Part shown: positions 20,692 through 48,172 of the stretch, in pieces | Position numbering within the stretch: position 1 is the first letter of the stretch | Layout of the letters: each line of letters starts with the position of its first letter | Virus record (IMG/VR): IMGVR_UViG_3300028388_004019 | Coordinates: 1 to 64,000 of that record | Direction: 5' to 3' (one strand) | Length of the DNA stretch: 64,000 nt | Source: a virus | Made by a program: the position numbers and the translations under genes | The notes under the pieces: generated by a model | Seen by the model: only the letters and a program-made list of their open reading frames with translations | What the model was told of the DNA's origin: nothing | Database searches by the model: none

Positions 20692-22122
20692 TTATATTAC
20701 ACCTCCAAAGTAATTTTTATTGGTAACCCAAATCTGATAACCTCTTCGTAATACTTCTCTACTAAAACCAATATCAAAGTCACCATCTTCATAATTGTCA
20801 ATAACTTTACCATATAAACCAACCATATTCGGAAGTATTGAAGATTTAAACATGATTATACCTGTCAGAAAACCAACACTGAAAGTTCCTCGTTTTTGGT
20901 AATTTCTTATCAGTACTTGATTTTCGTTTTCCACAACATAACCATCACTATCTGTCCTGAACCAAAAATTAACCCATTCGCTACCTTCACTCACAATCAT
21001 TGGTGAAAGTATATTTTTATCTTCCTCAATGAGGTATTTTAGAGACTCACGATTTCTAAAAATGTAGTTACAATCAAAGTTAATAATATAATCTACATTA
21101 TATTCCAAACTCTGTTTTATCGAAATATCTCTTTTCTCTGATTTTGATTTATTGACTTTATGTTTGGTGACACTCAAATAATCTGTTTCAAATTTTTCAA
21201 TAAATCTACTTATTTTATAATCATGTGAATCATCATCAAAGTATATTCTAAGATGGATATTATTTTTTGGATAATTCAAATATCTTATTTGGTCAAAAAC
21301 TTGGTCAATATCTTTCACTTCGAAATCTAAAAAAATATTGAATAAAAATTTATGTGTCTCTTGTTTGATGTCTTTGGATAAATAAAGTTCGTAATACATC
21401 TCATGAATCCTTTGTTTTACCGGTGATGGTCCATTCCCGTGTATGACAGAAGGTGTTGTCTCAGTAGTATTATTAATCACTTTATCCTTATGTACTATGA
21501 CATCATCTAATGCCAAATTCATTGTTTGAAACAACAATTGGTTGTGGTCCAAAACCATATTATCATTTTCATCACTCAAATAATAATTTGTGTAGAACTC
21601 CTGGTCGTCATCACTTTTTTCAATATTAACATCAACCAATTTCAATATGTGGTCACCATATCCGATGAATCCACCTGAATTCAAAAATCTATAATCACCA
21701 TCAATCTTAGGATATTCATCCACAAGGTCTTGATTGGGCCAACATGTTTTCTCAGCACTAAAGACCATTGGACTGTTAAAACTTCTGAACTTAGTCATAA
21801 TGTTTTTCGGACTATCATTGAATATGACATCATAAGAATCCGTAAACAGAATTACCGTGTTCTCTAAGTCGTACCAATCTTTAATTTCATCTCTCAAATA
21901 AATGATTTTTTGTGCACCACCTGGCTCTAATAATACTCCATTCTCAGCTGCACCACTTTCCCACGCCTGACCTAAACCCAATACCTTATATGGTATTTTA
22001 TTTCTTTTACACGTATCTTCAAACCTATCAAGGTTTTCATTCCTTTCTGTCGCAACAGTAATCACAACAAAACGGTCCACACCATCATAGTACGCATTTT
22101 CAATATTATCATATATTCCCAT
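20692..22122 (-). CDS. PLOD-type (procollagen lysyl hydroxylase/glycosyltransferase family) glycosyltransferase plus accessory domain, lacking the hydroxylase domain
   Basis: Colinear with the PLOD/LH3 GT domain as recalled: VITVAT, LGLGQAW, GGAQKI, FTDSYDVI (DxxD), FSAEKTCWP, RFLNSGGFIG, SDDDQEFYT, LDHNQLLFQTMN, HGNGP. The accessory domain follows: LNYP, KRD, LKYLIEEDKNILSPM, WVNFW, DFDIGFSR...YQIWVTNKNYFG. Confidence 0.92.
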   Translation of the reverse strand: MGIYDNIENAYYDGVDRFVVITVATERNENLDRFEDTCKRNKIPYKVLGLGQAWESGAAENGVLLEPGGAQKIIYLRDEIKDWYDLENTVILFTDSYDVIFNDSPKNIMTKFRSFNSPMVFSAEKTCWPNQDLVDEYPKIDGDYRFLNSGGFIGYGDHILKLVDVNIEKSDDDQEFYTNYYLSDENDNMVLDHNQLLFQTMNLALDDVIVHKDKVINNTTETTPSVIHGNGPSPVKQRIHEMYYELYLSKDIKQETHKFLFNIFLDFEVKDIDQVFDQIRYLNYPKNNIHLRIYFDDDSHDYKISRFIEKFETDYLSVTKHKVNKSKSEKRDISIKQSLEYNVDYIINFDCNYIFRNRESLKYLIEEDKNILSPMIVSEGSEWVNFWFRTDSDGYVVENENQVLIRNYQKRGTFSVGFLTGIIMFKSSILPNMVGLYGKVIDNYEDGDFDIGFSREVLRRGYQIWVTNKNYFGGVI

Positions 22123-22154
22123 AAGACAGTTTTATGGAAAAATAAGATAAGTTT

Positions 22155-22439
22155 CTAATTAAGAAATATTTTACCGTAGGAAGTTTCAAAATAGGGTTCA
22201 ACAATAGATACTACATCCTCTTCAGGTTGCATGTGGTTGAGTTCGAGAATAATCCCTATCATCTGTTTTTGAGTGAGTTCAATGTCCTCACCCTTATCAA
22301 AGTTTTCATTGGCAGTTTTTTCCACCTCATCGAAAAAATCTTGTGGCTCAGCAACACCAATCAACTTCTGAAGTTCATCAGGATTGTCAGTAAAAAACTT
22401 TACAAAATTACTTACGTATATTTGGACATCTACATTCAT
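22155..22439 (-). CDS. Hypothetical protein
   Basis: 94-aa ORF with its own -7 box (TATATTTG) directly upstream. Confidence 0.7.
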   Translation of the reverse strand: MNVDVQIYVSNFVKFFTDNPDELQKLIGVAEPQDFFDEVEKTANENFDKGEDIELTQKQMIGIILELNHMQPEEDVVSIVEPYFETSYGKIFLN

Positions 22440-22443
22440 ACTA

Positions 22444-22480
22444 CAAATATAAAAAAAGTCAGGAGAATGTCCTGACTTTT
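22444..22480 (-). terminator. Terminator with adjoining -7 promoter box
   Basis: Minus strand AAAAGTCAGGA-CATTC-TCCTGAC-T7 running into TATATTTG. Confidence 0.75.
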
Positions 22481-22486
22481 ACTAAA

Positions 22487-23839
22487 TTATCTTGAGATAA
22501 ACACACCCTCTTCCGCCAACTTCTCAACTGCTTCAGGTAGCTTAAGTTGACTGTTACCTTGGATGTTGATTACCTTCAAATTCGGTAATTTTGCAATATC
22601 CTCAGGGATAGTCTTTAAGTTAGGGTTGTTAGGAATTGAAAGGAACTGTAAGTTTTCCAATTGACCAATGGACTTTGGAAGTGATTTAAGAATACCTTCA
22701 AAGTGAACCGCCATCAAGTTTTTGTAATCACCCAATTTCTCAGGAATATCCAAAGCCAATTCTTTTACATCTTCACTTCTATATCCGTAACCACCACTAC
22801 TCTTAGTGAAGTCAAACGAAGTGATGTCTTTCGGTAAGTTTTGGAACAACTCATCGAAACCGTAAAGTGCAATATACTTAGAAGACGCATCTCTTGGGTA
22901 ATCGATATTTACCTTCTTACCGTCCATGGAAGTCATCCCCTTAGCAAATTCAGGTTTGAACGTATCTTTCAACTCAGGATTTGAATTTAAGAAACTAATC
23001 AAATCGATAGTACGGTCGTTAGCGTCCATAAACTGATTTGATGGGAAGTGGAATTGGTATCTCTTCGCTGGAAGACCCGATACCTGACCAACCTTAGGAC
23101 CACCTGACATAAACTCTTCAGCTTTGTTAGGTAGAATAACATATAATGGACCACTCTTAATGTAGTGGTTAAACATTGAACCACCAGGAGATGATGTACA
23201 CCATCCTGATTCACCCTTACCAGGCTTTTGGTCGTTACCACCGTAGAAACATGCCGCGTCCTTACCTAATTGACTTGAATCACTAATTCTAACAACAGTC
23301 CAATTAGCACCTCTGAATATTACCTCACCACCTGGGTGGTCGTAAGTCTTAGCAGCTTCTTCTTTCTCATCTTTAGTTGCCTTAGTCTTCTCCAAAGAGA
23401 ATGGTAACATCAAATCGTTAAGTCTTTCAATACTAATCTTATTGATATCACGGTATTCACGTTCCAACTTATTTTTGAACCTCTCGAACTTTTCCAAGTC
23501 CTGAGTTACCTTATATAAATCTTCAAAAAACAAACGTAACTTTTCTTTCTTCTCAGCTTTGAATGCTGGTGTACCGTAGTCGGCCTCAATATTCGGCTCA
23601 ATCTGTAGGAATTGTCTTAATAACCAATTCACATACTTACCTGCCTTTTTGATGTTATCTCCATCCTTACGTGTTGTAGGGTCAGCGGAGATAATCTTAT
23701 CAAATTCCTCCTTACTCATACGAGCAGGTTTTACTTTGTCACCTTTCTTTTTCGGCTCTGTATAAGTCTTCAACAAAAGCTCGTAACGACCTTGTTCAAG
23801 AATTACTGTCTTTACTATATTACTAAACTTAATTGCCAT
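22487..23839 (-). CDS. Phage protein with C-terminal leucine-rich repeats
   Basis: C-terminal LPKSIGQLENLQFLSIPNNPNLKTIPEDIAKLPNLKVINIQGNSQLKLP is an LRR. The middle region has WCTS...GPLYVI...RYQFHFPSNQFMD. Confidence 0.8.
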   Translation of the reverse strand: MAIKFSNIVKTVILEQGRYELLLKTYTEPKKKGDKVKPARMSKEEFDKIISADPTTRKDGDNIKKAGKYVNWLLRQFLQIEPNIEADYGTPAFKAEKKEKLRLFFEDLYKVTQDLEKFERFKNKLEREYRDINKISIERLNDLMLPFSLEKTKATKDEKEEAAKTYDHPGGEVIFRGANWTVVRISDSSQLGKDAACFYGGNDQKPGKGESGWCTSSPGGSMFNHYIKSGPLYVILPNKAEEFMSGGPKVGQVSGLPAKRYQFHFPSNQFMDANDRTIDLISFLNSNPELKDTFKPEFAKGMTSMDGKKVNIDYPRDASSKYIALYGFDELFQNLPKDITSFDFTKSSGGYGYRSEDVKELALDIPEKLGDYKNLMAVHFEGILKSLPKSIGQLENLQFLSIPNNPNLKTIPEDIAKLPNLKVINIQGNSQLKLPEAVEKLAEEGVFISR

Positions 23840-23897
23840 AGTGTTTGTTTTTCTTATAAATATATGAATAAATAAAAGATTCTATCTTACAACACCA

Positions 23898-23929
23898 CAA
23901 AGATAAAGAAAAGGTTTTAGATATCCAAA
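23898..23929 (-). promoter_or_regulatory. Bacteroidota-type sigma-A promoter
   Basis: Minus strand TTTG-N20-TATCTTTG, an exact consensus match. Confidence 0.8.
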
Positions 23930-24816
23930 GTAGTTTGACCCTTTTCTACCTCCTTATATGAACTCAGACCTTCAACTTCGTAGTTCATAATCAATAGTTC
24001 GGTTCCTTTCGATTGAGCCTTTCCACTACTTGCACCTGCAGCTTTGGAGAAGTCCTTAGTGACCCAAGCATGACTCTCCTTTGGGAACCATTGATGTAGA
24101 AGGTCGAAATCATAATAAGATAAAGAATACTTAGACTCAACTTCTGATAATACGTTGGCAAGTCTTTCATGGTCGTCACGGTCAAAATCATGGTTAGAAT
24201 AATAGTTTTCAGTTTTCCAATATGGTGGGTCCAAATAGATATATGTCGTTGGTGAGTCGTACTTCTTAATAACCTCAGCAAAGTCCATGTTCTCAACATG
24301 AGTAATTGACAAGAACTTCTTTACCCACTTCTCATTCCTCAACTTATCACGGAAGGTCAAGAACTTAGATTTATACTTACCTTTAAGGTCAATAAACTTA
24401 GACGATTCAGGTTTACTACCACTGAAAACTGAAGTAAGGATATAGGCATACTTCGCAGCAACCTCATAGTCAGGACCGTTCACCTCAAACCCATCAGCAA
24501 AGATTTCACTCTGAAATTGTTCAAACTGTAAACGATAGATTGCTGGTGTCGGGAACTCTCCCTTCTGTTGACAAGGGATTGCCTCAACAGCCTTCAACAA
24601 CTCTGTAGGGTTTTGAATACATTGAAACAAATTATAATTCAACGGATTGAAGTCATTGTACACAACCCTTTTTAAGTTTGGATACTTTTCCATATCCATG
24701 TTATAGAAACACCAAAACATTCCACCGAATGTCTCAACATACGTCTCCATATCTTGTGGGTAATAGTCCACAATCCATTTTCCAATTCTACTTTTTCCTC
24801 CGATATATGATAGCAT
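23917..24816 (-). CDS. DNA adenine methyltransferase (Dam/D12 class), orphan
   Basis: YIGGKS, YVETFGG (motif I) and YLDPPY (motif IV), in alpha-type order. Confidence 0.9.
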   Translation of the reverse strand: MLSYIGGKSRIGKWIVDYYPQDMETYVETFGGMFWCFYNMDMEKYPNLKRVVYNDFNPLNYNLFQCIQNPTELLKAVEAIPCQQKGEFPTPAIYRLQFEQFQSEIFADGFEVNGPDYEVAAKYAYILTSVFSGSKPESSKFIDLKGKYKSKFLTFRDKLRNEKWVKKFLSITHVENMDFAEVIKKYDSPTTYIYLDPPYWKTENYYSNHDFDRDDHERLANVLSEVESKYSLSYYDFDLLHQWFPKESHAWVTKDFSKAAGASSGKAQSKGTELLIMNYEVEGLSSYKEVEKGQTTLDI

Positions 24817-24832
24817 AAAAAATCCTTTTCCA

Positions 24833-24864
24833 CAAATATAGTAAATAAAAACGGAAAAGGCAAA
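24833..24864 (-). promoter_or_regulatory. Bacteroidota-type sigma-A promoter
   Basis: Minus strand TTTG-N20-TATATTTG, an exact consensus match, upstream of the Dam-like gene. Confidence 0.85.
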
Positions 24865-24874
24865 TCTTAAAATG

Positions 24875-24900
24875 AAAAAACCCCTCCGAAGAGGGGATTT
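24875..24900 (-). terminator. Terminator, copy 1 of a 22-bp direct repeat
   Basis: AAAAAACCCCTCCGAAGAGGGG (24875-24896), identical to 25802-25823. Confidence 0.85.
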
Positions 24901-24902
24901 GT

Positions 24903-25745
24903 TTAGTTTGTTCTCATAAATTTAACTCTCCTACCGTCACTATAAAGAACAATATAAACTTTATTTGGTTCTATATAATCAACATCACGTCCCAATAAAT
25001 CATAATAACCAACCACACTTACCTTATCTAAATCAGTTTGTGTTATCTTCTTGATAGATACTGACTTGAACTCCAAACATACATTTAATTTTTTGAATGC
25101 CCAAGTATCAATTCCTGTACACTTATTATAAATCATAGGGATAATGAAGTATCGACCTGAGTCTTTGAAGGTATAATCCAAAACTCTCTCAGAACGGATA
25201 CTATAATATTCAATAAGTTCATCATCCCAACTGTAAGTAAAATACAATGTTGAATCATCAACTTCTTTCCATTCTTTATTACTTAAACTATCAATCCATC
25301 CATCACCTTTATATATTGTGTAGTAATATTCGATACAGGTGTCTTTTCGGTCCTCCAACTCAAACGTATAATACTTACAATTCTTTGCTCCGATATTATA
25401 ACCATAACCTAATTTATTAAACACGGTAACATCAACCTCAACTGTAAATACAGTATCACACTTTTCACATTCGTTAAAAACATTGAGTCTCATTTGATAT
25501 TTTCCTTTACCAAATGAAACACCAGTGTACCCACCCCAATCTTCAAGAGTGTCCACCTTATCTAACTGATAATCATATACTGTGAAATAATAATACCAAC
25601 ACTCATCAGAATGCATGTTGGTTTGAAAATACATATCATTGGCTTGTTGTTGAACCTTCTTGAATGTGATGCCAGAAAAATCACATTTGGACCACCCTGT
25701 TATCGACGTAAACAAAATGGTGAGTAATAAGACTAATTTTTTCAT
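24903..25745 (-). CDS. Secreted protein with signal peptide, PKD/Ig-like repeats and T9SS type A-like C-terminal sorting domain
   Basis: Probable start MKKLVLLLTILFTSITGWS/K at 25745 (the track extends it to 25781). Two repeats contain YYFTVY/YYYTIY...GKY/GRY...NxC. The C-terminus is VVGYYDLLGRDVDYIEPNKVYIVLYSDGRRVKFMRTN. Confidence 0.75.
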   Translation of the reverse strand: MKKLVLLLTILFTSITGWSKCDFSGITFKKVQQQANDMYFQTNMHSDECWYYYFTVYDYQLDKVDTLEDWGGYTGVSFGKGKYQMRLNVFNECEKCDTVFTVEVDVTVFNKLGYGYNIGAKNCKYYTFELEDRKDTCIEYYYTIYKGDGWIDSLSNKEWKEVDDSTLYFTYSWDDELIEYYSIRSERVLDYTFKDSGRYFIIPMIYNKCTGIDTWAFKKLNVCLEFKSVSIKKITQTDLDKVSVVGYYDLLGRDVDYIEPNKVYIVLYSDGRRVKFMRTN

Positions 25746-25801
25746 GACCACAAAAGTAACCTTAAAAGAATAGAAGGACAATCATTAGTGTGTCATAAAA
25801 T

Positions 25802-25833
25802 AAAAAACCCCTCCGAAGAGGGGTTTTTTTTTT
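25802..25833. terminator. Bidirectional terminator, copy 2 of the 22-bp direct repeat
   Basis: AAAAAACCCCTC-CGAA-GAGGGG-T10. Confidence 0.85.
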
Positions 25834-25835
25834 GG

Positions 25836-26048
25836 TTACTTTTGGATTTTACTCATAACCCAGGCCTTTAAGATGTCCCAGTTACGTGTAGCAAATACAC
25901 CGAATGAGAAACCTGCCCAAATCTTGTATCCCATAGCCCATAAGACTAAACCGATAAGAAGACCTAAAATACCTTCAACACCGTTCGATACAATCCAGTT
26001 TTTACATACCGCAAAAACCATTTTAATAAAGTCTAATACTTTTTTCAT
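25836..26048 (-). CDS. Small membrane protein
   Basis: 70 aa with a hydrophobic hairpin (GILGLLIGLVLWAMGYKIWAGFSFGVFA). Confidence 0.7.
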   Translation of the reverse strand: MKKVLDFIKMVFAVCKNWIVSNGVEGILGLLIGLVLWAMGYKIWAGFSFGVFATRNWDILKAWVMSKIQK

Positions 26049-26150
26049 AATAGTACTGTTTTAAAAATAAATACTCCAAAACCTCAGAATGTTGATTTCT
26101 TAGATATTTATTGTTAAGTTAATGTAAATAAACTGTAAAAAAAAGTCGTT

Positions 26151-26489
26151 ATGAAACAAATATTTATAACCCTATTCCTTTTAATCGGTCTATCCTCATT
26201 CGGTCAAACAGTTTCCATTACAGACTGGGATAACAACAACGTTGAAGAATATGTTAAGTGGTCTGAAGAAGGGTACAAATTAGAATCTGGCAGTATGATT
26301 GCTGGAAAATTCCACGGTACATTTATCTCTTACTACCCTGACGGAACAATCAGAGTAAAAGCACAATTCAAAAACGGTAGTAAAGAAGGTGTATGGAAAT
26401 ACTTTAATAAAAATGGTGATATCACTCACCGTATCGTATACCAAGAAAATAAAAGGATACAAGCGTCAGAGACTCGTTATTTCGAATAA
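26151..26489 (+). CDS. MORN-variant repeat (YwqK-like) protein with signal peptide
   Basis: Signal MKQIFITLFLLIGLSSFG/Q; GKFHGTFISYYPDG and GSKEGVWKYFNKNG repeats. Confidence 0.75.
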   Translation: MKQIFITLFLLIGLSSFGQTVSITDWDNNNVEEYVKWSEEGYKLESGSMIAGKFHGTFISYYPDGTIRVKAQFKNGSKEGVWKYFNKNGDITHRIVYQENKRIQASETRYFE

Positions 26490-26635
26490 CAGTTCTTATA
26501 TGGACGACATGAAGCTTTCTGAGAGAACCCCATATCTTTACATGGGGTTTTTTCACAATAGGACTTACTCATCTTTCTCTCAGTGAGTTCCTCCTCTATA
26601 TACTTTTTCAATACGTTTCTTATTATATCTTCCAT
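26477..26635 (-). CDS. Small Cys-containing protein (52 aa)
   Basis: Translated by hand: MEDIIRNVLKKYIEEELTERKMSKSYCEKTPCKDMGFSQKASCRPYKNCYSK*. Four Cys; a TATTTAT motif lies directly upstream. Confidence 0.7.
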   Translation of the reverse strand: MEDIIRNVLKKYIEEELTERKMSKSYCEKTPCKDMGFSQKASCRPYKNCYSK

Positions 26636-26652
26636 ATAAAGATAAATATATT

Positions 26653-26793
26653 ATGGCAGAAAAAGAATGTTCACAGTGTAAAGAGAATCTAAACGGAATA
26701 CAAAAAGGTATGTTAGTCCTTTCTATTTATATTCTCATGGCTTCAGTTTACGGAACTATTAAGTTGTTCGAACTAGCCATGACTTGGTTCTAA
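26653..26793 (+). CDS. Small membrane protein with CxxC (46 aa)
   Basis: Translated by hand: [46 protein letters not shown]. Confidence 0.6.
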
Positions 26794-27723
26794 AGACTCT
26801 TCACGAGTTACACTCAACTTAATAAAAAGGTCACCCTTCATATTTTGAATGTTAAACCCTTTACCCCTCACTCGTAGGGGTTTTTCTGTATCCAATACCT
26901 GAGGCAATGGAATACTAATCTTTGAATCGGGGTGTGGGACCTCAATCTTTTCCATACTCATAAAATCATTAACATTGACCTTATGGTGATATACTAAATC
27001 ATTGTTTATCTTTTCAAAACCTTCACCCTTAACCATATTGACTTTAAGAATTAGGTCACCAATACCTCTACCAGGGTAAAAGTCACCCTTCTGTTGTAAT
27101 CTTAGGAAGTCACCACTATCCACATTTTTAGGAATGTTAACTTTTACATTTGTGAATACAGGTTTTGTCTTTTGACCACCACAAGTATAACATGGATTGA
27201 TAATTCTATAACCTTCACCTCTACATTGAGGACAGTCAGATTCCACCACCTGAGCAAACATACCTGAACCGAATTTCTGTCTTACCCTACCGTGACCTTG
27301 ACAGGTACCACAAACTTCTCGGTCACCACCAACACCTTTACAAGTTTCACAACTACCTCTTACTTGATAACTTAATTCACGTTCCACACCATTGTAGGAT
27401 TCCACAGGATTAATATCAATGTTGATAATCTTATCAGGTGCTTGAGGTTTACGTCTTTGTCGTGTTTGTGTTTGTTGGTTAAACATATTGAAGAAGTCCT
27501 CCATAGAACCTCCACCCCCACCAAATGGATTCGGATTATCGTATTGATTTTTCTTATTCTCATCACTCAGAACACCATAGGCTTCACCAATCTCTTTGAA
27601 CTTATCACCACCCTCAGGGTTTACATCTGGGTGATATTGTTTACTTAATTTTCTATACGCCTTTTTGATTTCGTCCTGAGACGCATCACGAGAGACACCT
27701 AAAATTTGATAATAATCTTTCAT
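26773..27723 (-). CDS. dnaJ: DnaJ chaperone
   Basis: MKDYYQILG...YHPD J-domain, G/F linker, four CxxCxGxG-type zinc-finger repeats, C-terminal KGDLFI. Confidence 0.95.
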
Positions 27724-28366
27724 GGACAACTATATAATTGTATTGTTTAAGAATAAGAAAAAGAGACGAATAATCAAAGGTTACGTAACAGAAAGTAACG
27801 CTCGTCAGAAATTCAATACATTACTCAAAGAAAATGAGGTTCTTTTCCCTATGGAATATGAGAATGCTGAGTATTGTGTTCATGAATTAGGTATACTCAC
27901 CACACAACGTGATTTTCAATTACCACTGTTTTATACTGATGAGTTTGGTAGGAATGAAAAGGTCTTTGTTGACGGTGAAAGTCATTATACCTTTATTGAT
28001 ATCAAACCTTATCAAATAGAAGAAAAAATTTATGATTGGCAAACAGATAAGAAGATTGACATGCAAAAACTTATCTACGACTACTGCCCAATCAAAGAAA
28101 TGAAAAGTATCTCCACTTTGAATAATAAAATTATTGTACAGATTAATGATGATTTCAAATTGTTCTCTTTGAAGAATATTGATGATGCACAACGAGCATT
28201 GAAAGTAATGGAAAAGTATTTCATTAAAAAGGGTCGTAAAGATGCCATTTTTGTTCGTGACATTTCTACGACCCAACGTAAGTGGTTATATGATGTGCTA
28301 GAAAGAAACGGATTTGACCGTAAGAAACTCTATCGTCAACACACTACTTACTCGAAACGAGAGTAA
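27722..28366 (+). CDS. Hypothetical protein
   Basis: 214-aa ORF; its ATG overlaps the dnaJ start codon head-to-head. Confidence 0.7.
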
Positions 28367-39429: not shown

Positions 39430-39454
39430 ATCGTTATCGTTTTATTAGATTACG

Positions 39455-39488
39455 AATATACAACAAAAAAGGGACTCTCACAAGTCCC
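39455..39488. repeat. 34-bp direct repeat copy 1 (terminator plus promoter module)
   Basis: AATATACAACAAAAAAGGGACTCTCACAAGTCCC, identical to 40983-41016. Confidence 0.9.
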
Positions 39489-39500
39489 TTCTTAAAAAAG

Positions 39501-40334: not shown

Positions 40335-40370
40335 ATTAATAGTGTAATATTTTTTTGTATTTTGTACAGT

Positions 40371-40961
40371 TTATCCTCGTAAAATAACTTTATTATGATT
40401 ACTATAAATATCATAATAACTACCTTGTTGGATATTACCATAGGCCATATACTCGAAATTACAAAGGTCAGTCACTTTATATCTACCCGTCAATTGTCCT
40501 GGTCCTGAATGTTCAAAATGAAATAATATGTGATATCCATCTTGAATATTTTTTCTTAATTTAGTCTTTTCTTCAGGTGTTGAAGTATAAAAAACTCTGA
40601 ACCTACTTTTAATATCATCTATATCTGAACTTATTTTTAATTCAGGATATATTACTTTTTCCCCAACTCTAAGTCTTAAGTCAGGATATCCCGTACCTAA
40701 TCTTTCAACAATAACATCATCACCATAATGTTTCTGTATTGCATTAACCATGACATTTTCAACAAAATTACCATATTCATTAATACGTCCATGATACTCC
40801 ATTTCACTATTTTTAACAATGGTTTGTTCAGTTATATTACTCAAAAAATCAATCATATCTTGAGTAACTTCTAAAATTTCTGAATCATAATATGCTGAAA
40901 TATAATCATTCAATGTTATTTTTTGTTTTTTTTGAGCCCTAAGATATGATATATTGTCCAT
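40371..40961 (-). CDS. Putative PD-(D/E)XK restriction-endonuclease-like protein
   Basis: RINEYGNFVE...GYPD...YPELK catalytic-like motif, directly upstream of the MTase. Confidence 0.6.
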   Translation of the reverse strand: MDNISYLRAQKKQKITLNDYISAYYDSEILEVTQDMIDFLSNITEQTIVKNSEMEYHGRINEYGNFVENVMVNAIQKHYGDDVIVERLGTGYPDLRLRVGEKVIYPELKISSDIDDIKSRFRVFYTSTPEEKTKLRKNIQDGYHILFHFEHSGPGQLTGRYKVTDLCNFEYMAYGNIQQGSYYDIYSNHNKVILRG

Positions 40962-40982
40962 TTAATATTATTTTACATTTCA

Positions 40983-41016
40983 AATATACAACAAAAAAGG
41001 GACTCTCACAAGTCCC
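40983..41016. repeat. 34-bp direct repeat copy 2 (terminator plus promoter module)
   Basis: Identical to 39455-39488. On the minus strand it is a GGGACT-TGTGAG-AGTCCC-T6 hairpin and TTG-N20-TATATTTG. Confidence 0.9.
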
Positions 41017-41458
41017 CTTCATAAAAAATCACCTCAACACCACTTTCTTCGAACATCTGTTTTGAACGTTTGGCATGTTCGTCCCAATGTTCTCGGTTTC
41101 TTGTGGTGTCCACAGTCTTACAATAGATACGTCTGACCCCTGAACTAATTATCCCACGAGCACAATCACTACACGGTATACCACAGGTCAAATACATTGT
41201 TGTATCTCTTAGACTGACACCGATACGTGCTGCGTTATATAAAGCGTTACGTTCCGCATGTTCAAACCAAAAATACTTCTCTGGTCTTACCTGACGTTCT
41301 TCCACATCATCGTTGATACCACGAGGAAAGGAGTTATACCCAGTGGTGATAATCTCGTGGTCCTTACCCACGATGACTGCACCAATTTTTGTTCTACGGT
41401 CTTTTGACTTCTCTTTGACCTGTTCGGCAATATTCAAAAAATACTTATCCCAATTCAT
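41006..41458 (-). CDS. dCMP deaminase family protein
   Basis: KIGAVIV, TGYNSFP, HAERNA and PCSDCA zinc-binding motifs. Confidence 0.92.
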   Translation of the reverse strand: MNWDKYFLNIAEQVKEKSKDRRTKIGAVIVGKDHEIITTGYNSFPRGINDDVEERQVRPEKYFWFEHAERNALYNAARIGVSLRDTTMYLTCGIPCSDCARGIISSGVRRIYCKTVDTTRNREHWDEHAKRSKQMFEESGVEVIFYEGDL

Positions 41459-41594
41459 CTTCTTCTTTTGTTTCGTACCACGAAGGATTTGGTAAACCTG
41501 AATAATGGTCCCAAGTCTCGTCTGGTAACCAGTTTACTGTTTCACCTGAGAGACGTTGTTGGTCTTCTCTATCTTTACTATTCCGTCTGCCCAT
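41445..41594 (-). CDS. Possible small ORF (49 aa)
   Basis: Translated by hand: MGRRNSKDREDQQRLSGETVNWLPDETWDHYSGLPNPSWYETKEEDELG*. It fills the gap between sbcC and the deaminase; the start is uncertain. Confidence 0.35.
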   Translation of the reverse strand: MGRRNSKDREDQQRLSGETVNWLPDETWDHYSGLPNPSWYETKEEDELG

Positions 41595-42643
41595 TGTGAT
41601 ACCATTGGATTATGTGTGATAATTAATATTTTCTCGAAGTAGTCTTTAATCTTATGGAAGAATTCTGCTACCATCTCCAAGTTGTCGTTGGATATCTTTC
41701 CAAATACTTCATCGAATACCACCACGTTTGGTTTTGGTAGTGAACATACTTTTGACAGTACCGCTCTAAGTGCCAAGGACGCCATCGTTCTTTCAAACCC
41801 TGAACCTGACGACATCAACTTCTCAATCTGAGTGTTGTTGTCAATCATCCAAAATTCAACCTCATCTTTCTCTGAGATACGAACCTCCAACTTAAACTCT
41901 GCCGAGTCCATAAGTAGTCGTTGTAGTTCTGAGTTGATGACTGGCATCATACTTCTCATAATCATCTTTGAGATACCCTTCTTACCGAAGAGTTCCAAAT
42001 AGATTTTGTAGATTTTTAGTTTTGCTTCTTCCTCTTTGATTTTCTCAATAAGGTCTTTGAAATCAACAATCTTCTCTTCGTATTTTTTGATGTTGGCTTG
42101 AGATGTGGTAATCTCGTAGTTGACTCCTTCTTTTTCTCTTTGAAGGTCGTCCAATCTCATATCAGCACGAAGGATGGTCTCATCAATCTTTTTGTTCTCC
42201 TCAAACTTCTCTTTGTCTTTGTTGAAACGGTCCAACTTATCTTGAGCTTGGTCTTTCTTCAACTTCAACGATTCCAATTGAATCTCAAACTTCTCTTTGA
42301 TGAGCTTGTTTCTTTCATAAAGGTCAAAAGCTTTCTTAAGGTCCACAAACGATTGTTCTTCCTTTGTCAACTTCTCAACTTCTTTCACACTTTTCTTAAC
42401 CTTCTTTTCAAGGTCTTTTGACTCTTCTTTCTTTTTGTCGGCATAGTCTGACTTGGCCAGTTCTATACCACAATACTGACAGGAGAAACCTCCTTCAAAA
42501 TCCTTTAGTTCATCGGTGATGTCCGAGATTTTGGATTCCATGGTTCCCAACTTAACTTTCTCTTCTGATAATAAGTCCTTCACGTTATCGTGCTGGTCCT
42601 CATGGTAATATTCAGAAGGTTCAACAACCTTAACCTGTTTCAA
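41534..42643 (-). CDS. SbcC/Rad50/gp46-like ATPase, C-terminal part
   Basis: Zinc hook CQYC, coiled coil, signature SSGSGFE, Walker B VVVFDEVFG and H-loop IITHN. Confidence 0.9.
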   Translation of the reverse strand: MKQVKVVEPSEYYHEDQHDNVKDLLSEEKVKLGTMESKISDITDELKDFEGGFSCQYCGIELAKSDYADKKKEESKDLEKKVKKSVKEVEKLTKEEQSFVDLKKAFDLYERNKLIKEKFEIQLESLKLKKDQAQDKLDRFNKDKEKFEENKKIDETILRADMRLDDLQREKEGVNYEITTSQANIKKYEEKIVDFKDLIEKIKEEEAKLKIYKIYLELFGKKGISKMIMRSMMPVINSELQRLLMDSAEFKLEVRISEKDEVEFWMIDNNTQIEKLMSSGSGFERTMASLALRAVLSKVCSLPKPNVVVFDEVFGKISNDNLEMVAEFFHKIKDYFEKILIITHNPMVSQWADGIVKIEKTNNVSQVKQ

Positions 42644-43752
42644 GTCAGACTCAACACCATTGATTCCTTGATGTTATCTTCTTGACCTTTGATAAGTTCA
42701 TTGTGCTCTTCAATGTAACCCTTCAAAGATTCGATATCATAAAGGTTTGAGGTCATGCTCTTTTGAAACTTTGAGGACATTTCCTTTGCGGTATCTTCCT
42801 TAAGTTTCAATGCGTCCAATCCCAAGAACCTTGAAAGGACTTGTCCTCTCGCTGTTGGTTTGGCATCAATCAACTCTTCCAAGTTGGTTGCCGTTGTTAA
42901 GATGGTCATCAAAAAGTCATCCATTGTTCCAATGGACTTCTTAATGAAATCCTCCGTTTCTCTTCTCTGTTCACCAGTAAAGTTCAATAAGCTTCCGTCG
43001 GCAAGTTTCTTGAAGAACTCCAAAGATGTGCTAACGGTATAGTCAACTTTGTTTCTCTTCAACTTTCTGGTCACCTCTCTGACGATGATATACTCCTCAC
43101 CGTCAATAAGAACTTCACCCTTTACTGTGACCTTATCCTTGTTTCTAAATCTATTAAAGATTTCTTCTGCTTTACTCGTCTTAGTAGTTTGGTTGAAGAA
43201 AAGGAAAAGAAGGAGGTCTACTGTCAAAACGGTCTTTCCTCCAAAATTGGGGGGATTGGATTCGACCGTTGAGATTCCTTTGATTTTATCAAAGTTCAAA
43301 ATTTGTCCATCACCAAAAGATAAGAAGTTTGAAAACTCAATCTTCTTAATATACCACTTCTTAAATGGGGTGACCTCTGCCTTCTCAGACGCAATAGCGT
43401 TCTCAACAGCATCATCCAAATTAAGAATGTCGTCGGCATATTCCTTCAACTTATTGTTGTCCAAATACTTAACGATGAGTTCCTTTTGGTAGTTCTCATC
43501 CAAAATGTTCACAGACACATCAATGGACTGTAAATCACCTTCATCAGTTTTGACTTTGGTAACCACATTCACATTGGTCGATGAATACTTCTTCTGAAAG
43601 TACGTCCTTACCCTTTTGATTCTTTCTTGTGTGAAGTTTTCGGGGGTGTCTTCCCACACTACTTGAATGTAAGGGTTGGTCAACTCATCAGTTTTTAATT
43701 TGTGAGACATAAAGTTGTAGTTTAGTTCTTTCGGTGGATTGAACAAATCCAT
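42640..43752 (-). CDS. SbcC/Rad50/gp46-like ATPase, N-terminal part (frame break at about 42660)
   Basis: IKKIEFSNFLSFG, Walker A-like NPPNFGGKT and start of the coiled coil; the frame switches near codon 364. Confidence 0.88.
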   Translation of the reverse strand: MDLFNPPKELNYNFMSHKLKTDELTNPYIQVVWEDTPENFTQERIKRVRTYFQKKYSSTNVNVVTKVKTDEGDLQSIDVSVNILDENYQKELIVKYLDNNKLKEYADDILNLDDAVENAIASEKAEVTPFKKWYIKKIEFSNFLSFGDGQILNFDKIKGISTVESNPPNFGGKTVLTVDLLLFLFFNQTTKTSKAEEIFNRFRNKDKVTVKGEVLIDGEEYIIVREVTRKLKRNKVDYTVSTSLEFFKKLADGSLLNFTGEQRRETEDFIKKSIGTMDDFLMTILTTATNLEELIDAKPTARGQVLSRFLGLDALKLKEDTAKEMSSKFQKSMTSNLYDIESLKGYIEEHNELIKGQEDNIKESMVLSLT

Positions 43753-43753
43753 T

Positions 43754-43996
43754 TTATAGTTTGATATCCAAAGGTGTGTTTTCGTCTGCGTTTGGTAACT
43801 CTACGTCACCCATACTAATTTGAGGACCTGTTTGTTGTGTTTCCTCTTGCTCACCTCTTAATTGCTCCAACTGAGCAGTCATCTGCTCTTGCCATAGTTT
43901 TTGCATTTGGTTCATTTCACCTTTTAGACGAGCATTTCTCGCCTGAACTCTTTTACGGTGTGCCTTGGCTCCACCTCTTTTTTTTGTTCTACCCAT
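43754..43996 (-). CDS. Hypothetical protein
   Basis: 80 aa with a basic N-terminus. Confidence 0.65.
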   Translation of the reverse strand: MGRTKKRGGAKAHRKRVQARNARLKGEMNQMQKLWQEQMTAQLEQLRGEQEETQQTGPQISMGDVELPNADENTPLDIKL

Positions 43997-44186
43997 TGTT
44001 TTTTTTGTTTTCTAAGTAATCTATTATAAAACCGATAGCCACAAGTATATGCATTCCAAATGACATAATCAACTCGTGGATATCATCATATACGTTCAAA
44101 CTCAAATGAACGTGACCCACAACCCAAAATGGTATTGCAAGGTTTTGACTAATCCATACCGTAGTATATTTTAAGAAATGTTTCAT
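43989..44186 (-). CDS. Small membrane protein
   Basis: Probable start MKHFLKY; two hydrophobic segments. Confidence 0.65.
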   Translation of the reverse strand: MKHFLKYTTVWISQNLAIPFWVVGHVHLSLNVYDDIHELIMSFGMHILVAIGFIIDYLENKKNNG

Positions 44187-44187
44187 C

Positions 44188-44520
44188 TTATTTCTCGAAA
44201 TGTTCAACAATCGTGTTGATGGCCCATACACCACCTGATGCCAACATCCCATCGAAGAATATTGCCGGTACTGTTGGTATTCCCATCTCGATACCCCAAA
44301 TGGAGTAGATAAATGCACCCATGAAAAATCCTACCCATGTTGAACAACACATCATACAGGAAATGATTCCGTGAATGAAATTGAACAACGGTCCGAGGAC
44401 TGGAATACGTGAGTTACCCAATTTTTCAATGGACAAACGTGTTGATTGGAATATGGAACCATACACAATAATCTGTGTCATTCCGTAAGCGGCGATTAAC
44501 CATAATAATAATATCATCAT
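44188..44520 (-). CDS. DUF1360-like membrane protein
   Basis: Hydrophobic helices around ISCMMCCSTWVGF (CxxC...W). Confidence 0.65.
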   Translation of the reverse strand: MMILLLWLIAAYGMTQIIVYGSIFQSTRLSIEKLGNSRIPVLGPLFNFIHGIISCMMCCSTWVGFFMGAFIYSIWGIEMGIPTVPAIFFDGMLASGGVWAINTIVEHFEK

Positions 44521-45401
44521 AATTCTTTATTTAAGTTTGTTGATGCCAAATATGTGGCAGTTTGTTTTTTGAATTCCTTATCCAATTCTAACATAATTTC
44601 TTCATATTGTGAAATGGATTTATCTTTTTCTCTAATTTCTTCTTTTAACTTCTGAATGGTGTTTTGTAATCCTTTGAGTTTTTCAGGGTCAGCATTTCCT
44701 TTGACTTCCTTAATAACCTCAACCTCTTTGATTACCTCCACTGGTACTTCTTTGATAATTTCGACCTCTTTGGTGACCTCGATTTCCTTAACAACCTCTT
44801 TAGGTTTCTCCTCCAAAAGAACTTCCAACTCAGATAGTTGCCTCTCCAATTTTTTCTTTTCAGCATTTGCATTCTTCAGTTTTGTACTATATGTTTTGTT
44901 TGACCTCTCCAACTTGGTAAGTTTCCCTCCGAGTTCCTTTACCTGCTCATCATCGGTGATATAAACCTCTTTGGTGACCACCTTCTCAACTGGTTTCTCC
45001 ACCTCGACAATCTTCTCTACTTCTTTGATTACCTCTACAGGTTTTTCAACCTCAACGATTACCTCTTTCTCAATAACCTTTTCAACAATCTTTTCAACGG
45101 GGACCTCCTTGGTGATGACCCTCTCGACCTCTTTAATGACTTCTACGGGGACTTCTTTCTCCACAACCTTCTCCACCACCTTTTCAACTGGAACCTCAAC
45201 ACGGACCTCCTTAATCACCTCTTTCTCGATGACCTTCACCCCATCAGCATTTAATAATCCATATTTTTCAATCTGATACCCTTGAGCGAAGCATTCTTTG
45301 ATGAACTCATTGATGTCGAGTTCATTCAACTTACAGAACACTTTAAGGTCCTTAAGTTCTGAAGATGAAAAGTTAATAGTTGGTGAGTTGTTCTGTGCCA
45401 T
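44517..45401 (-). CDS. Protein with V/E/K-rich (VEKIVEKEVPVEV) repeats and coiled coil
   Basis: Two blocks of VEK/VPVEV/IKEVE repeats flanking a coiled coil; 294 aa. Confidence 0.8.
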   Translation of the reverse strand: MAQNNSPTINFSSSELKDLKVFCKLNELDINEFIKECFAQGYQIEKYGLLNADGVKVIEKEVIKEVRVEVPVEKVVEKVVEKEVPVEVIKEVERVITKEVPVEKIVEKVIEKEVIVEVEKPVEVIKEVEKIVEVEKPVEKVVTKEVYITDDEQVKELGGKLTKLERSNKTYSTKLKNANAEKKKLERQLSELEVLLEEKPKEVVKEIEVTKEVEIIKEVPVEVIKEVEVIKEVKGNADPEKLKGLQNTIQKLKEEIREKDKSISQYEEIMLELDKEFKKQTATYLASTNLNKEL

Positions 45402-46155
45402 GTTCTAAGTCTTCAATGTCGGTGATTTTGAAACTCAAGAATGGTCTTGGGTTTGATAAATCCACAAAGGAATATTTGTCCTTCTCTATATTATAAATAC
45501 CGAAACCATGCTTGGTCACACTCTCCCCAAAGTTTTGTTGAATGGTGGAACCCACCATATAGGCTTTCTTATCATCAGGGATATTAATCACCTGACGTTT
45601 GTGGATATCACCACATAATACCACATCCAATCCTCTGAAGTTCTCCAACTCATACGCATGGTCACCAAAATCAAAACCAGTGTCAGTTGTCAATCCCTGA
45701 ATAGGGTCATGAAATAACCCAATCTTAAATCCTTCAGCCTCACTAATATCAGGTTTGATATTCCCCTGAAACTGTGAATATACACACCAACTGACATTCT
45801 CATCTTCATAAACTCCTCTGTCTCTGTAATATACAATCTCAGGGTTCTTTAATGAATCAATGATAGGTGTCAACGCATCCAAACGATTAAGGTTATTGTT
45901 AAGGAAGTCGTGATTACCAGGGATAAGGACCGTCTTTGCAATTTTGGTACACTCTGTCAATGTCCATGCAACAATCTCAATAAGTTCAGGCGTCATCTGA
46001 TTCTTACTATGAACCAAATCACCAGTGAACACAATACGGTCAGGACCAATCTCCTTAAACTTCTCCAACATATCTGTTAGAATCTGTCTATATAAGTCGT
46101 GGTCCTTGAATAATCTTAAATGTAAATCTGAAAAGTGTACTAAGGTATTAATCAT
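45373..46155 (-). CDS. SbcD/Mre11/gp47-like metallophosphoesterase nuclease
   Basis: SDLH, TGD, PGNHD, FH and CGDIHK motifs. Confidence 0.9.
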   Translation of the reverse strand: MINTLVHFSDLHLRLFKDHDLYRQILTDMLEKFKEIGPDRIVFTGDLVHSKNQMTPELIEIVAWTLTECTKIAKTVLIPGNHDFLNNNLNRLDALTPIIDSLKNPEIVYYRDRGVYEDENVSWCVYSQFQGNIKPDISEAEGFKIGLFHDPIQGLTTDTGFDFGDHAYELENFRGLDVVLCGDIHKRQVINIPDDKKAYMVGSTIQQNFGESVTKHGFGIYNIEKDKYSFVDLSNPRPFLSFKITDIEDLEHGTEQLTNY

Positions 46156-46496
46156 CGGATTGATTTGAATTTACCGTGAATATAATAGTTGAATTGTTCC
46201 CATTTATTGAGTTCGGAACCCCATAACTTTCGGTCACTCATATCGATACACCAATCATCCCATTTTTCAAATAGGTAAAGGATATCAATTGTAAGTTCAC
46301 CAGAATGTGTGACCGTTGGGAATGACCACGTGATTTCAAATAGTGAACCCTCCCAATGAATACCATTATGAATATTCAAGAATTGGAAACCAAACTTATC
46401 ATGGTCACCACCCAAATACACATTGAATAATCCTATCTTAAGATTCCATCGGTGGGTCTTCCACGCTATCTTCTGAAGTAGTTTTCTTATTTTCAT
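46152..46496 (-). CDS. Hypothetical protein
   Basis: Probable start MKIRKLL; Trp-rich. Confidence 0.6.
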   Translation of the reverse strand: MKIRKLLQKIAWKTHRWNLKIGLFNVYLGGDHDKFGFQFLNIHNGIHWEGSLFEITWSFPTVTHSGELTIDILYLFEKWDDWCIDMSDRKLWGSELNKWEQFNYYIHGKFKSIR

Positions 46497-46561
46497 TTTC
46501 TTCTGTTTTACTATTCCACATTTCGTCCCAAAAGTAGAACGTTTCTTTCTTATTGTTAAAA

Positions 46562-46786
46562 TCACTCATCTCCGAGAATATCAAATTCTTCGTTCATGTG
46601 TCCACACTTTGCACACACATAAGTTTCCATAGGTACCAGTTGGTCCTCAGGAGACCCAGTTAACAATTTACTAATTTTTTTTATAATTGTCACCTTTTCA
46701 AAGAAAATATTTTCACATTCCTCACATTTCACATTCGGCGAGTCCATTACGTTCACCTGAATCTTCTTTCCTCCACTTAAATCCAT
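46562..46786 (-). CDS. Small zinc-ribbon protein
   Basis: CEEC...CAKC pairs, 74 aa. Confidence 0.75.
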   Translation of the reverse strand: MDLSGGKKIQVNVMDSPNVKCEECENIFFEKVTIIKKISKLLTGSPEDQLVPMETYVCAKCGHMNEEFDILGDE

Positions 46787-46799
46787 TTTTAATTGGCAA

Positions 46800-47429
46800 T
46801 TATCTTTTTAATTGGCAGAACGATACAATGATGTACCTCTGACCTGTTAATACGGGTAAACCCCCGTGGCGGTGTGTTATCTGACCAGGGTGAATGGATA
46901 TATTCCCCTTCAACCCTTTTAATGATGTCTGTTGATTTGGGAAGTAGGTACCTCCACCAGTAAAGTCCTCAGTATTTAATGTTACCACAACAGTAATCTG
47001 ACTCATATCGTGGTGTAACCCCAAATGGTATTGAGCATAAGGATGATAACGAGCAATAAAGTTTTCCGAATGTAGATTTAACCAATCAGGTTCTTCTAAT
47101 TTATAAAGATATGTCGCCATCGGCCAAACATATTCTTTCAATACCGCTTCATAGGTTTCGTGTAAACCCAAAGTCTCCATCACCATATCTGTCGTTGGAT
47201 AACTCTCATGTCGGTCCACAGTCCAACAATTACATGCCTCAGCTTCTTGAATGATATAGTCACAAAATAAATCAGTGAAACAAGGAATGGTATATATATT
47301 CGGCAATTCCTCTTGAGCATATAGGTCCCATTTGAAACTCGTAACCTCAGGACGTAAAAACTTTTCCCTCCAACCTTCAGGGTCGCTAAAATAGGTATAT
47401 AATTCTGGATGTACTCTACTCTCTCCCAT
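46800..47429 (-). CDS. PLOD-type lysyl hydroxylase domain (2-oxoglutarate/Fe(II) dioxygenase), intact active site
   Basis: HPELYTYFSDPEGWREKF, PNIYTIPCFTDLFCD, YPTTD, NFIARY, LHHD (HxD), FTGGGTYF, HPGQITHRHGGLPVLTGQRYIIVSF. Colinear with the PLOD C-terminal domain, including the distal His and the 2OG-binding Arg. Confidence 0.9.
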   Translation of the reverse strand: MGESRVHPELYTYFSDPEGWREKFLRPEVTSFKWDLYAQEELPNIYTIPCFTDLFCDYIIQEAEACNCWTVDRHESYPTTDMVMETLGLHETYEAVLKEYVWPMATYLYKLEEPDWLNLHSENFIARYHPYAQYHLGLHHDMSQITVVVTLNTEDFTGGGTYFPNQQTSLKGLKGNISIHPGQITHRHGGLPVLTGQRYIIVSFCQLKR

Positions 47430-47580
47430 ATTCTTCTCCCGATTCTCTAGCTAGTTTAACACCATACCCGATTAACACCCCACCAATAAATGATGTCCAT
47501 AACCACGGGTACGAAGTCATGAATATCCCCAACATGGTGAAGATGATTGCGTGTCCGTATTTACTTACCTTTATCTTCAT
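47416..47580 (-). CDS. Small membrane protein (54 aa) between the two hydroxylase-domain genes
   Basis: Translated by hand: MKIKVSKYGHAIIFTMLGIFMTSYPWLWTSFIGGVLIGYGVKLARESGEEYGRE*. Confidence 0.65.
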   Translation of the reverse strand: MKIKVSKYGHAIIFTMLGIFMTSYPWLWTSFIGGVLIGYGVKLARESGEEYGRE

Positions 47581-48172
47581 TGCTATAATTAATCATATAT
47601 TTTACCTCACCCTTTTGAACCATCTTAACACCATATCTATGGGTAATCTGTCCTGGGAAGATGTACATATGTCCTTGTTTTGGCTTGATTGAGCATTTAT
47701 ACTTTTCAAAGTAAATTTCACCACCATTATCTTCGTTTTTATCAAACTTAATCAACTTGGTAATATTAACAAAATCATGGTGTAAACGTATGTCATCCCC
47801 TTCTTCCAAAGTGATTAACTCACTATCAACATCCATTTGCCTGAATCCTCTACCCGCAACACCCCAATAATGGTTCATCATCTCGAACCCATACTCTTCG
47901 ATAACATCATAATAGTCTTGATAAAAAGGGTGACCATTAAATGTATAGGTTTTAAGTCTTGACCCCCACTTATTACTAACCATAAGTTCTTCATCTTTGG
48001 TATTCTCCAAAAATTTATCACAAAACTCTTGTGTGAAAAAAGGAATTTCTAAAACATCTGTACAGGGATTGGTAATCATAAGGTCCCATTCCTTGGATAT
48101 TGCCTCTTTTCTCATACAGAGTTTTTTCCATCCATTTACATCCGAAAAATCAAAAATCTCAGGGTATTTCAT
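47561..48172 (-). CDS. Second PLOD-type lysyl hydroxylase domain, degenerate active site
   Basis: YPEIFDFSDVNGW, NPCTDVLEIPFFTQEFCD, LHHD, GGEIYF, FPGQITHRYG...GEVKY. The distal His is replaced by Tyr and the Arg by Lys. Confidence 0.82.
   Translation of the reverse strand: MKYPEIFDFSDVNGWKKLCMRKEAISKEWDLMITNPCTDVLEIPFFTQEFCDKFLENTKDEELMVSNKWGSRLKTYTFNGHPFYQDYYDVIEEYGFEMMNHYWGVAGRGFRQMDVDSELITLEEGDDIRLHHDFVNITKLIKFDKNEDNGGEIYFEKYKCSIKPKQGHMYIFPGQITHRYGVKMVQKGEVKYMINYSNEDKGK

Follow-up and report, generated by a model that had tools for sequence, protein, structure and literature searches.

The stretch of DNA analysed here (the window) makes up the initial 64 kb of an IMG/VR virus record of 183,755 bp (IMGVR_UViG_3300028388_004019; CheckV completeness ~60%), and nearly all of its genes lie on the minus strand. 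These include a gene for a PLOD-type glycosyltransferase with an accessory domain (GT-AC, 20692–22122), tandem genes related to PLOD lysyl hydroxylase domains (LH1, 46800–47429, and LH2, 47561–48172), and the collagen-like fibre genes colA (1–3240), colB (3950–6910) and colC (8129–12412), all on the minus strand. By its gene content the record belongs to a T4-like jumbo myovirus: it has genes for a major capsid protein of T4 type (PF07068, E 5e-63, at 177.6–179.1 kb) and for a tail sheath, together with phage-type SbcCD-like nuclease and primase genes inside the window. The phage is marine and roughly 300 kb in size; a relative, G008, is 297 kb long and 99% complete. From sequence comparisons and structural models we propose that this phage probably encodes a dispersed pathway of collagen-lysine modification of the animal and mimivirus type, which would act on its own tail fibres in the host cytoplasm before assembly.

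The product of GT-AC (protein P0001; 476 amino acids, aa) has a PLOD-type glycosyltransferase (GT) domain at about residues 16–236, followed by an accessory GT-A-like (AC) domain at about residues 262–474, as the initial annotation had proposed from motifs in the translation. In whole-database searches, to which the E-values given here refer, it matches Pfam PF25342 GT_PLOD at E 2.8e-68 (230 bits against a cut-off of 27, profile positions 4–228 of 246), and its best PDB matches by phmmer are human LH3 (6fxk_A, E 6.1e-58) and mimivirus R699 (9dyt_A, E 3.7e-46). Residues 16–236 align with positions 14–238 of the LH3 chain, within its GT domain, and residues 262–474 with positions 278–491, within its accessory domain, whereas the alignment with R699 runs from residue 21 to 473 and takes in 18–455 of the 458 residues of that protein. 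A HMMER alignment read against the R699 structure (PMC12279948) places the Mn ligands D83 and D86 of R699 at D95 and D98, and its acceptor and donor residues K62, W118, N138, D162/D163/Q164 and H216 at K72, W128, N148, D172/D173/Q174 and H228. The DxxD motif and His for Mn2+ binding, the poly-Asp loop and the Trp, Asn and Lys residues of a PLOD GT are thus aligned, and all of the mapped metal, donor and acceptor residues fall in columns that are invariant among 22 homologues that are 39–95% identical to P0001.

The structural models agree with these assignments. An AlphaFold2 model of P0001 has a mean predicted local distance difference test score (pLDDT) of 83, and Foldseek, whose matches cover both domains, ranks LH3 (9e-42) and R699 (2e-36) at the top; the model superposes on the isolated human GT domain 6wfv with a template modelling (TM) score of 0.87 and a root-mean-square deviation (rmsd) of 2.1 Å. 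Only the per-domain matches are meaningful, since the relative orientation of the domains differs (predicted TM score 0.54, global rmsd about 19 Å). R699 is a stand-alone GT-AC protein with proven collagen galactosyl-hydroxylysine (Gal-Hyl) glucosyltransferase activity (PDB 9dyt, 9dzs, 9e92; PMC9546862, PMC12279948), and like R699 the phage protein combines GT and accessory domains without a hydroxylase domain, at similar length (476 aa and 458 aa) and with end-to-end alignment. The two are ~26–30% identical, and they differ in that R699 belongs to a giant virus of amoebae rather than to a tailed bacteriophage and that its activity is proven where that of P0001 is predicted. A stand-alone GT-AC is not new, having this published giant-virus precedent, and its likeness to R699 and LH3 makes P0001 a putative UDP-Glc:Gal-Hyl glucosyltransferase.

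LH1 (P0002, 209 aa) corresponds to a stand-alone PLOD-type lysyl hydroxylase (LH) domain, a 2-oxoglutarate (2OG) and Fe(II)-dependent dioxygenase. PDB searches align it with positions 502–713 of the LH3 chain (E 9.6e-27) and with the hydroxylase domain of mimivirus L230 (6ax6, E 2.5e-22), and its Pfam matches are to the OGFOD2-like family PF25238 (31.6 bits, cut-off 31) and to 2OG-FeII_Oxy (26.6 bits, cut-off 23). H139, D141 and H188 align with the Fe ligands of LH3 and R198 with its 2OG-binding Arg, and these four residues are invariant among 20 homologues; in LH3 we take the corresponding residues to be H667, D669, H719 and R729 (Scietti et al. 2018). The AlphaFold2 model (pLDDT 89) fits the LH domain of LH3 with a TM score of 0.89 and an rmsd of 2.0 Å, and that of L230 with TM scores of 0.84–0.89 and an rmsd of 1.7 Å. 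The protein has the PLOD-specific N-terminal helical part (OGFOD2-like) in addition to the double-stranded beta-helix core, and in Foldseek the next fold class, that of viral prolyl hydroxylase, trails by more than 10 orders of magnitude in E-value (1.6e-7 versus 6e-21). We regard it as practically certain, on sequence and modelled fold, that P0001 and P0002 are members of the PLOD families, the first of the GT/AC type and the second of the LH type.

Together the two proteins tile positions 14–491 and 502–713 of the LH3 chain and leave about 10 linker residues uncovered, which upholds the initial proposal of a PLOD split at the junction of the accessory and hydroxylase domains. The genes are 24.7 kb apart and neither P0001 nor P0002 has a hydrophobic N-terminal signal sequence that is visible by eye in its translation. 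Human PLOD is a single GT-AC-LH chain with an endoplasmic reticulum (ER) signal peptide, and the phage system, being divided between separate genes without one, is therefore classed as a split homologue and not as a PLOD orthologue; the lack of a signal peptide also means that both proteins would be expected to act in the cytoplasm. Like human LH3 (PLOD3), to which they are ~27–31% identical, they retain the DxxD, poly-Asp, HGNG, HxD...H and Arg motifs. Unlike LH3, the phage has an extra LH paralogue with Tyr in place of the distal His, and the putative substrates are tail fibres rather than extracellular matrix.

Hydroxylation and glucosylation of DNA bases, as for hydroxymethylcytosine in T4-like phages, was considered and rejected. 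LH3 and L230 are the closest matches of the oxygenase, which shares their PLOD-specific N-terminal part, and the GT is of the GT-A PLOD type and not a T4 alpha- or beta-glucosyltransferase.

Next to LH1 lies LH2 (P0003, 203 aa), a diverged paralogue with 27% identity to it. LH3 provides its sole PDB matches (E 2.5e-4), in which LH2 keeps the HxD motif and has Y180 aligned to the distal His, so that the canonical Fe-binding triad is incomplete. The distal Tyr is present in all six LH2 orthologues examined, which are mutually only 36–80% identical; the 2OG-binding Arg is kept in four of them, and this phage and G008 have Val-Lys at that place. The LH2-LH1 tandem order is conserved in five related records (G003, G004, G007, G008 and G014), and no related record that covers the expected position is without the pair; the records that lack LH genes are cut off on the relevant side. 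Conservation of the Tyr at such low identity, and of the tandem in five related records, argues that LH2 has diverged but is being maintained as a paralogue rather than decaying. In PLOD enzymes the LH domains work as dimers, and homodimerisation through the LH domain is required for activity. LH2 could be either a putative non-catalytic dimer partner or a variant hydroxylase with a shifted ligand, and an LH1/LH2 heterodimer is our hypothesis. We also note a short hydrophobic open reading frame (ORF) of ~35–40 aa between LH2 and LH1 (window 47430–47560, minus strand), overlapping the LH1 start codon, which may encode a small membrane peptide.

The collagen-like genes occupy the first part of the window. 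colA encodes at least 1080 aa and runs past the start of the window and record, colB encodes 986 aa and colC 1427 aa; counted in runs of at least five Gly-X-Y triplets they contain 197, 183 and 186 triplets, with Lys at the Y position of 85 (43%), 74 (40%) and 86 (46%), respectively. Each gene has 20–21 such runs, amounting to 549–591 residues, and in runs of at least eight triplets Lys occupies 216 of 406 Y positions and none of the X positions, which bears out the original description of collagens dominated by Gly-X-Lys. The record gives 30 matches to the Pfam collagen family PF01391, those listed being above the cut-off. Thr is the second commonest residue at Y, with 27–29 occurrences per gene. 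An open frame at 7096–8163 (minus strand; 355 aa stop to stop) encodes collagen repeats followed by a Peptidase_S74 intramolecular-chaperone domain (PF13884, E 7e-13, with PF01391), and its product matches PHROG tail-fibre C-termini at E 9e-20; the N-terminal 120 aa of colC have weak matches to PHROG tail-fibre families. Peptidase_S74 chaperone domains are typical of tail fibres and spikes, and it is this domain and the tail-fibre C-terminus that identify the collagens as fibres. The frame overlaps the end of colC by 35 nucleotides (nt) in a different reading frame, and relatives have single ORFs of 1727–1773 aa, so 7096–8163 is probably the C-terminus of the colC fibre gene, split from it by a frameshift that is either programmed, mutational or due to faulty assembly.

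A link between the enzymes and collagen is seen when other viruses are compared. A scan of IMG/VR with P0001 as a single sequence gave no match and a family alignment was needed, which recovered 26 loci with a PLOD GT; tests on whole records used IMG/VR records only. A PF01391 match above the cut-off is present in 21 of 21 PLOD-GT-bearing viral records (20 that could be searched and the present one), some of them fragments of just 17–22 kb, with no more than a few kb between collagen and enzyme genes. When 45 IMG/VR records no shorter than 17 kb were drawn at random by an arbitrary 15-mer, only four had a collagen match, two of them above the cut-off (Fisher p 1e-13 by record, or 2.5e-6 when the 21 are collapsed to seven lineage groups). 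The reverse does not hold: in 48 collagen-bearing viral records chosen by a (Gly-Pro-X)4 DNA pattern a PLOD GT occurs only once, so that the GT accompanies certain collagens only, as a specialised partner. The collagens that accompany it also differ in composition, with a median of 38% Lys at Y as against 2% in control collagens (Mann-Whitney p 3e-10, the rows being related). The co-occurrence and structural comparisons that the initial annotation had suggested as checks both came out in its favour.

The single PLOD GT among the 48 controls (E 1.6e-52) is in a 607 aa ORF of a 7.2 kb record, L115 (IMGVR_UViG_3300020409_000778). This is a small marine phage fragment, in whose collagen 30 of 164 Y positions are Lys and 103 are Thr.

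These comparisons bear on whether the enzymes act on collagen at all. Lysines of other phage proteins, such as the Thr/Pro-rich giant proteins of this genome, could be the substrate instead, as could proteins of the host envelope or ribosome, or a small molecule, and it fits this alternative that the enzyme genes lie among genes of early or auxiliary types (thioredoxin, glutamine-synthetase-like, TonB receptor, Dam methylase, primase, SbcCD) and that PHROGs classes the family as an auxiliary metabolic gene. The strict co-occurrence with collagen in about seven lineages, with direct adjacency to fibre genes in several, points the other way, as does the rarity of the GT among collagen-bearing viruses, which marks it as a specialised add-on rather than a general phage function, and the nearest characterised relatives, LH3, L230 and R699, all act on collagen. 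We consider a substrate other than collagen improbable, and collagen itself a likely one.

Relatives of GT-AC are numerous. A search of 5.8 billion proteins returned about 100 clusters of metagenomic GT-AC proteins of 474–491 aa, behind which vertebrate LH3 (~32% identical to P0001) ranks, together with variants that carry a methyltransferase (MT) domain (GT-MT-AC, ~692 aa) and 718 aa forms with a GT25 domain. The surrounding gene order is conserved, and runs from a Dam methylase through a leucine-rich repeat (LRR) protein, a small ORF, GT-AC, a PcfJ-like protein, a glutamine-synthetase-like protein and a thioredoxin to collagens. This synteny recurs on contigs obtained independently in other samples, including one of 412 kb, in which GT-AC is only 65% and 44% identical, and the collagens downstream on the syntenic contigs are likewise Lys-rich at Y (109 of 246 triplets). 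Together with the whole-database E-values, this conservation puts the findings well beyond anything that chance would give. In a tree of GT-AC proteins the phage sequences group in a clade of their own (SH-aLRT support 99), set apart both from that of animals (support 100) and from those of low-GC viral sequences. The tree does not resolve the deep branching between the animal, giant-virus-like and phage groups, and we claim no direction of transfer.

These observations also speak to the origin of the genes. Animal-like proteins are unusual in a phage and LH2 has lost a canonical Fe ligand, as might be expected if the genes were passengers or decaying relics, or if the contig were an assembly chimera with eukaryotic or giant-virus DNA. 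The enzyme genes have the same GC content as the phage, however, and the synteny recurs on many independent contigs from different samples; chimeric assembly and contamination are rejected on these grounds. Catalytic residues remain invariant at 38–95% identity, the substitutions in LH2 are themselves conserved, and the phage clade is well supported and distinct from that of animals. An origin as relics or artefacts is accordingly very hard to credit.

Viral PLOD GTs also occur in other arrangements. In many relatives (P0018-P0025 and P0058-P0090; L016, L017 and L023) an S-adenosylmethionine (SAM)-methyltransferase domain (PF13489/PF08242) is inserted between the PLOD GT and accessory domains, giving forms of ~692 aa, or 920 aa with GT25, and other relatives, of 626–633 aa, carry an insert of unassigned type. 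Two low-GC contigs (L018:3421-6762 and L020:6089-9499) encode all-in-one proteins of 1114–1140 aa with GT25, PLOD GT(-AC) and LH domains; collagen genes lie a few kb away from them, and their CheckV completeness of 2–6% suggests that these contigs are probably giant viruses.

The step between hydroxylation and glucosylation in animals is the addition of galactose, and human LH3/PLOD3 works with COLGALT1/GLT25D1 (PDB 6fxk, 8zgc). The relatives of the phage resemble this pair in that they add a COLGALT1-type GT25 domain. Protein P0045, whose gene occupies the syntenic position of GT-AC, joins a catalytic domain of COLGALT1 type (E 4e-31) to GT-AC (E 5e-62) in one chain and nests within the jumbo-phage GT-AC clade, and domain scans of other viral proteins show GT25-GT-AC-LH, GT25-GT-AC, GT25-GT-MT-AC and GT25-GT-LH fusions. 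Three relatives (G005, G007 and G008) have instead a separate GT25 gene of 254–259 aa, with PDB matches to COLGALT1 only (E 2e-6 for that of G008), which is homologous to the GT25 domain of P0045 (E 5e-17). Capsid and sheath genes are located 29–32 kb further along in G008 than in the present record, and from this offset the record ends ~20 kb before the position of the GT25 gene in G008 (236.6 kb). The lineage as a whole thus holds the three animal activities, lysyl hydroxylase (LH), galactosyltransferase (GalT) and glucosyltransferase (GlcT), and by analogy with its relatives we infer a GalT for this phage.

The likeliest pathway has three steps. LH1, perhaps with LH2, would convert Y-position Lys of Gly-X-Lys-Gly into 5-hydroxylysine (Hyl), as its homology and intact active site indicate, and the three fibre genes offer about 245 Gly-X-Lys sites. 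A COLGALT1-type GT25 enzyme would then add galactose to Hyl, going by the relatives, and GT-AC, with Mn2+ and UDP-glucose, would make Glc-Gal-Hyl, a prediction drawn from its R699/LH3 architecture and acceptor-pocket residues. By analogy with R699 and LH3, GT-AC would need the galactosylated acceptor. We put the chance that Glc-Gal-Hyl is the exact product at about even.

Several observations weigh against this pathway. Many of the 21 records with both collagen and PLOD GT are related to one another. Collagens in general favour Lys and Arg at Y and low GC favours Lys codons, so Lys richness taken alone is weak evidence, and one PLOD-linked lineage (L023/L024/L031) has just 6% Lys at Y. In this genome some distance separates the enzyme genes from the collagens, about 8 kb for GT-AC and about 34 kb for the LH genes. 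A late-promoter-like motif, TATTTAT, is found 37 and 66 nt upstream of colC, and TATTTATA lies 15 nt upstream of colB, but neither TATTTAT(A) nor TATAAATA was found upstream of GT-AC, LH1 or LH2, so co-regulation is not supported. Finally, neither the PF01755 profile nor a search with the G008 GT25 protein found a GT25 gene on this record, and the galactose step for this phage has to be drawn from its relatives and from where the record is inferred to end. The initial suggestion that the phage would modify its own collagens is supported by homology, intact catalytic residues, fold, conserved synteny and the statistical and positional link to Lys-rich collagen genes, with the correction that a GT25 gene for the galactose step is seen in relatives only.

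The last of these points would suit a system in which collagen is the substrate and a different glycan is made, with GT-AC glycosylating Hyl directly or using another donor and with no galactose step. Mimivirus L230 makes Glc-Hyl directly, as the relevant statement in PMC9546862 has it (citing Luther et al. 2011); the COLGALT1 match of the G008 GT25 protein is weak, moreover, and Pfam GT25 also covers lipopolysaccharide (LPS) glycosyltransferases. Against this, the R699 residues that contact the first sugar (K62, W118, N138, D162 and H216) are all conserved and invariant in the phage family, which favours a disaccharide-forming role over direct glycosylation of Hyl, GT25 is fused to the same GT domain in many viral proteins, one of which nests in the same clade, and the record is only 60% complete. 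We consider this alternative unlikely and prefer the three-step pathway to Glc-Gal-Hyl.

Comparison with characterised and cultured systems shows what is particular here. L230 is a viral enzyme that modifies Lys-bearing collagens of its own virus, and P0002 is homologous to its LH domain; in L230, however, that domain is fused to a GT of its own, whereas P0002 is a bare hydroxylase domain and is slightly closer in sequence to LH3. Since expression in E. coli gives an active mimiviral lysyl hydroxylase (PMC9546862), a bacterial cytoplasm can support this chemistry. Among unrelated cultured phages, gp58 of Roseobacter phage CRP-6 contains a GT25 fragment, a PLOD GT and an LH domain and lies two genes after the tail fibre gp60, in which Lys takes the Y position in 26 of 99 uninterrupted Gly-X-Y triplets. 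Synechococcus phages S-CAM9 and S-8S53 encode a collagen tail fibre rich in Gly-X-Lys and, after it, two 2OG oxygenases as well as a GT25-PLOD-GT protein, and the collagen-like fibres that adjoin the PLOD genes of cultured phages have Lys at 26–44% of Y positions. The GT and LH domains of CRP-6 gp58 and S-CAM9 gp218 are homologous to those of the present phage, at about 25–33% identity, but those proteins are fused, lack the accessory domain and are encoded beside the fibre gene, whereas the genes here are separate and spread across tens of kb or more, and the accessory domain is kept. What is particular to this genome is the dispersed organisation, the LH3/R699-type accessory domain and the conserved LH1/LH2 pair, in a ~300 kb T4-like phage.

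The initial annotation had placed PLOD enzymes outside standard phage biology. Our literature search found no paper on PLOD-type enzymes, lysyl hydroxylase or hydroxylysine in bacteriophages or their tail fibres, and to that extent the statement stands, but homologues are present, unrecognised, in cultured phages: those of CRP-6 and S-CAM9 are annotated as 'hypothetical' or '2OG-Fe(II) oxygenase', the latter being the label of PHROG family phrog_61. More tentatively, and with somewhat less confidence than an even chance would warrant, we suggest that tailed phages produce collagen tail fibres bearing Glc-Gal-Hyl by means of a modular set of LH, GT25 and PLOD-GT(-AC) enzymes, fused in some and dispersed in others and here including the pseudo-hydroxylase LH2, and that this machinery, usually ascribed to metazoans and giant viruses, is widespread and old in marine phages. 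It would then be a source of soluble enzymes that bacteria can express, for use in producing recombinant collagen with its glycans.

Among the other genes of the window, a TonB-dependent outer-membrane receptor of 843 aa with Plug and beta-barrel domains is encoded at 16103–18634 (minus strand). Relatives L003-L005 have it at the corresponding site (852 aa) but the more distant L006 does not, and it may be an auxiliary gene or may serve in superinfection or nutrient uptake. This receptor and a distant LH homologue with the source label of a Crocinitomicaceae metagenome-assembled genome provide a hint of a Bacteroidota host. A glutamine-synthetase-like protein (377 aa) and a thioredoxin are encoded between the collagens and GT-AC (13566–15348, minus strand); both genes are syntenic in relatives, which also encode a glutaredoxin there. 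Directly upstream of GT-AC are genes for a 450 aa LRR-containing protein (22487–23839) and a Dam-type N6-adenine methyltransferase (23917–24816), also on the minus strand and syntenic in relatives.

Hydroxylysine-linked Glc-Gal is a hallmark of animal collagen, and to our knowledge it has been shown beyond animals only for mimivirus. If the proposed pathway operates, separate LH, GalT and GlcT modules that are small and free of signal peptides would be naturally suited to the bacterial cytoplasm, and modules for glycosylated recombinant collagen in E. coli are a stated need (PMC9546862). The idea is directly testable because CRP-6 and S-CAM9, which carry homologous systems, are cultured. The roles envisaged for a glycocoat on the fibres, whether in stabilising the triple helix, in shielding it from proteases or in adhesion, are speculation, but the pathway would add a post-translational layer to the receptor-binding fibres of phages, with consequences for stability, protease resistance, adhesion and host range, and would revise the view of how collagen-modifying enzymes originated and moved between viruses and cells.

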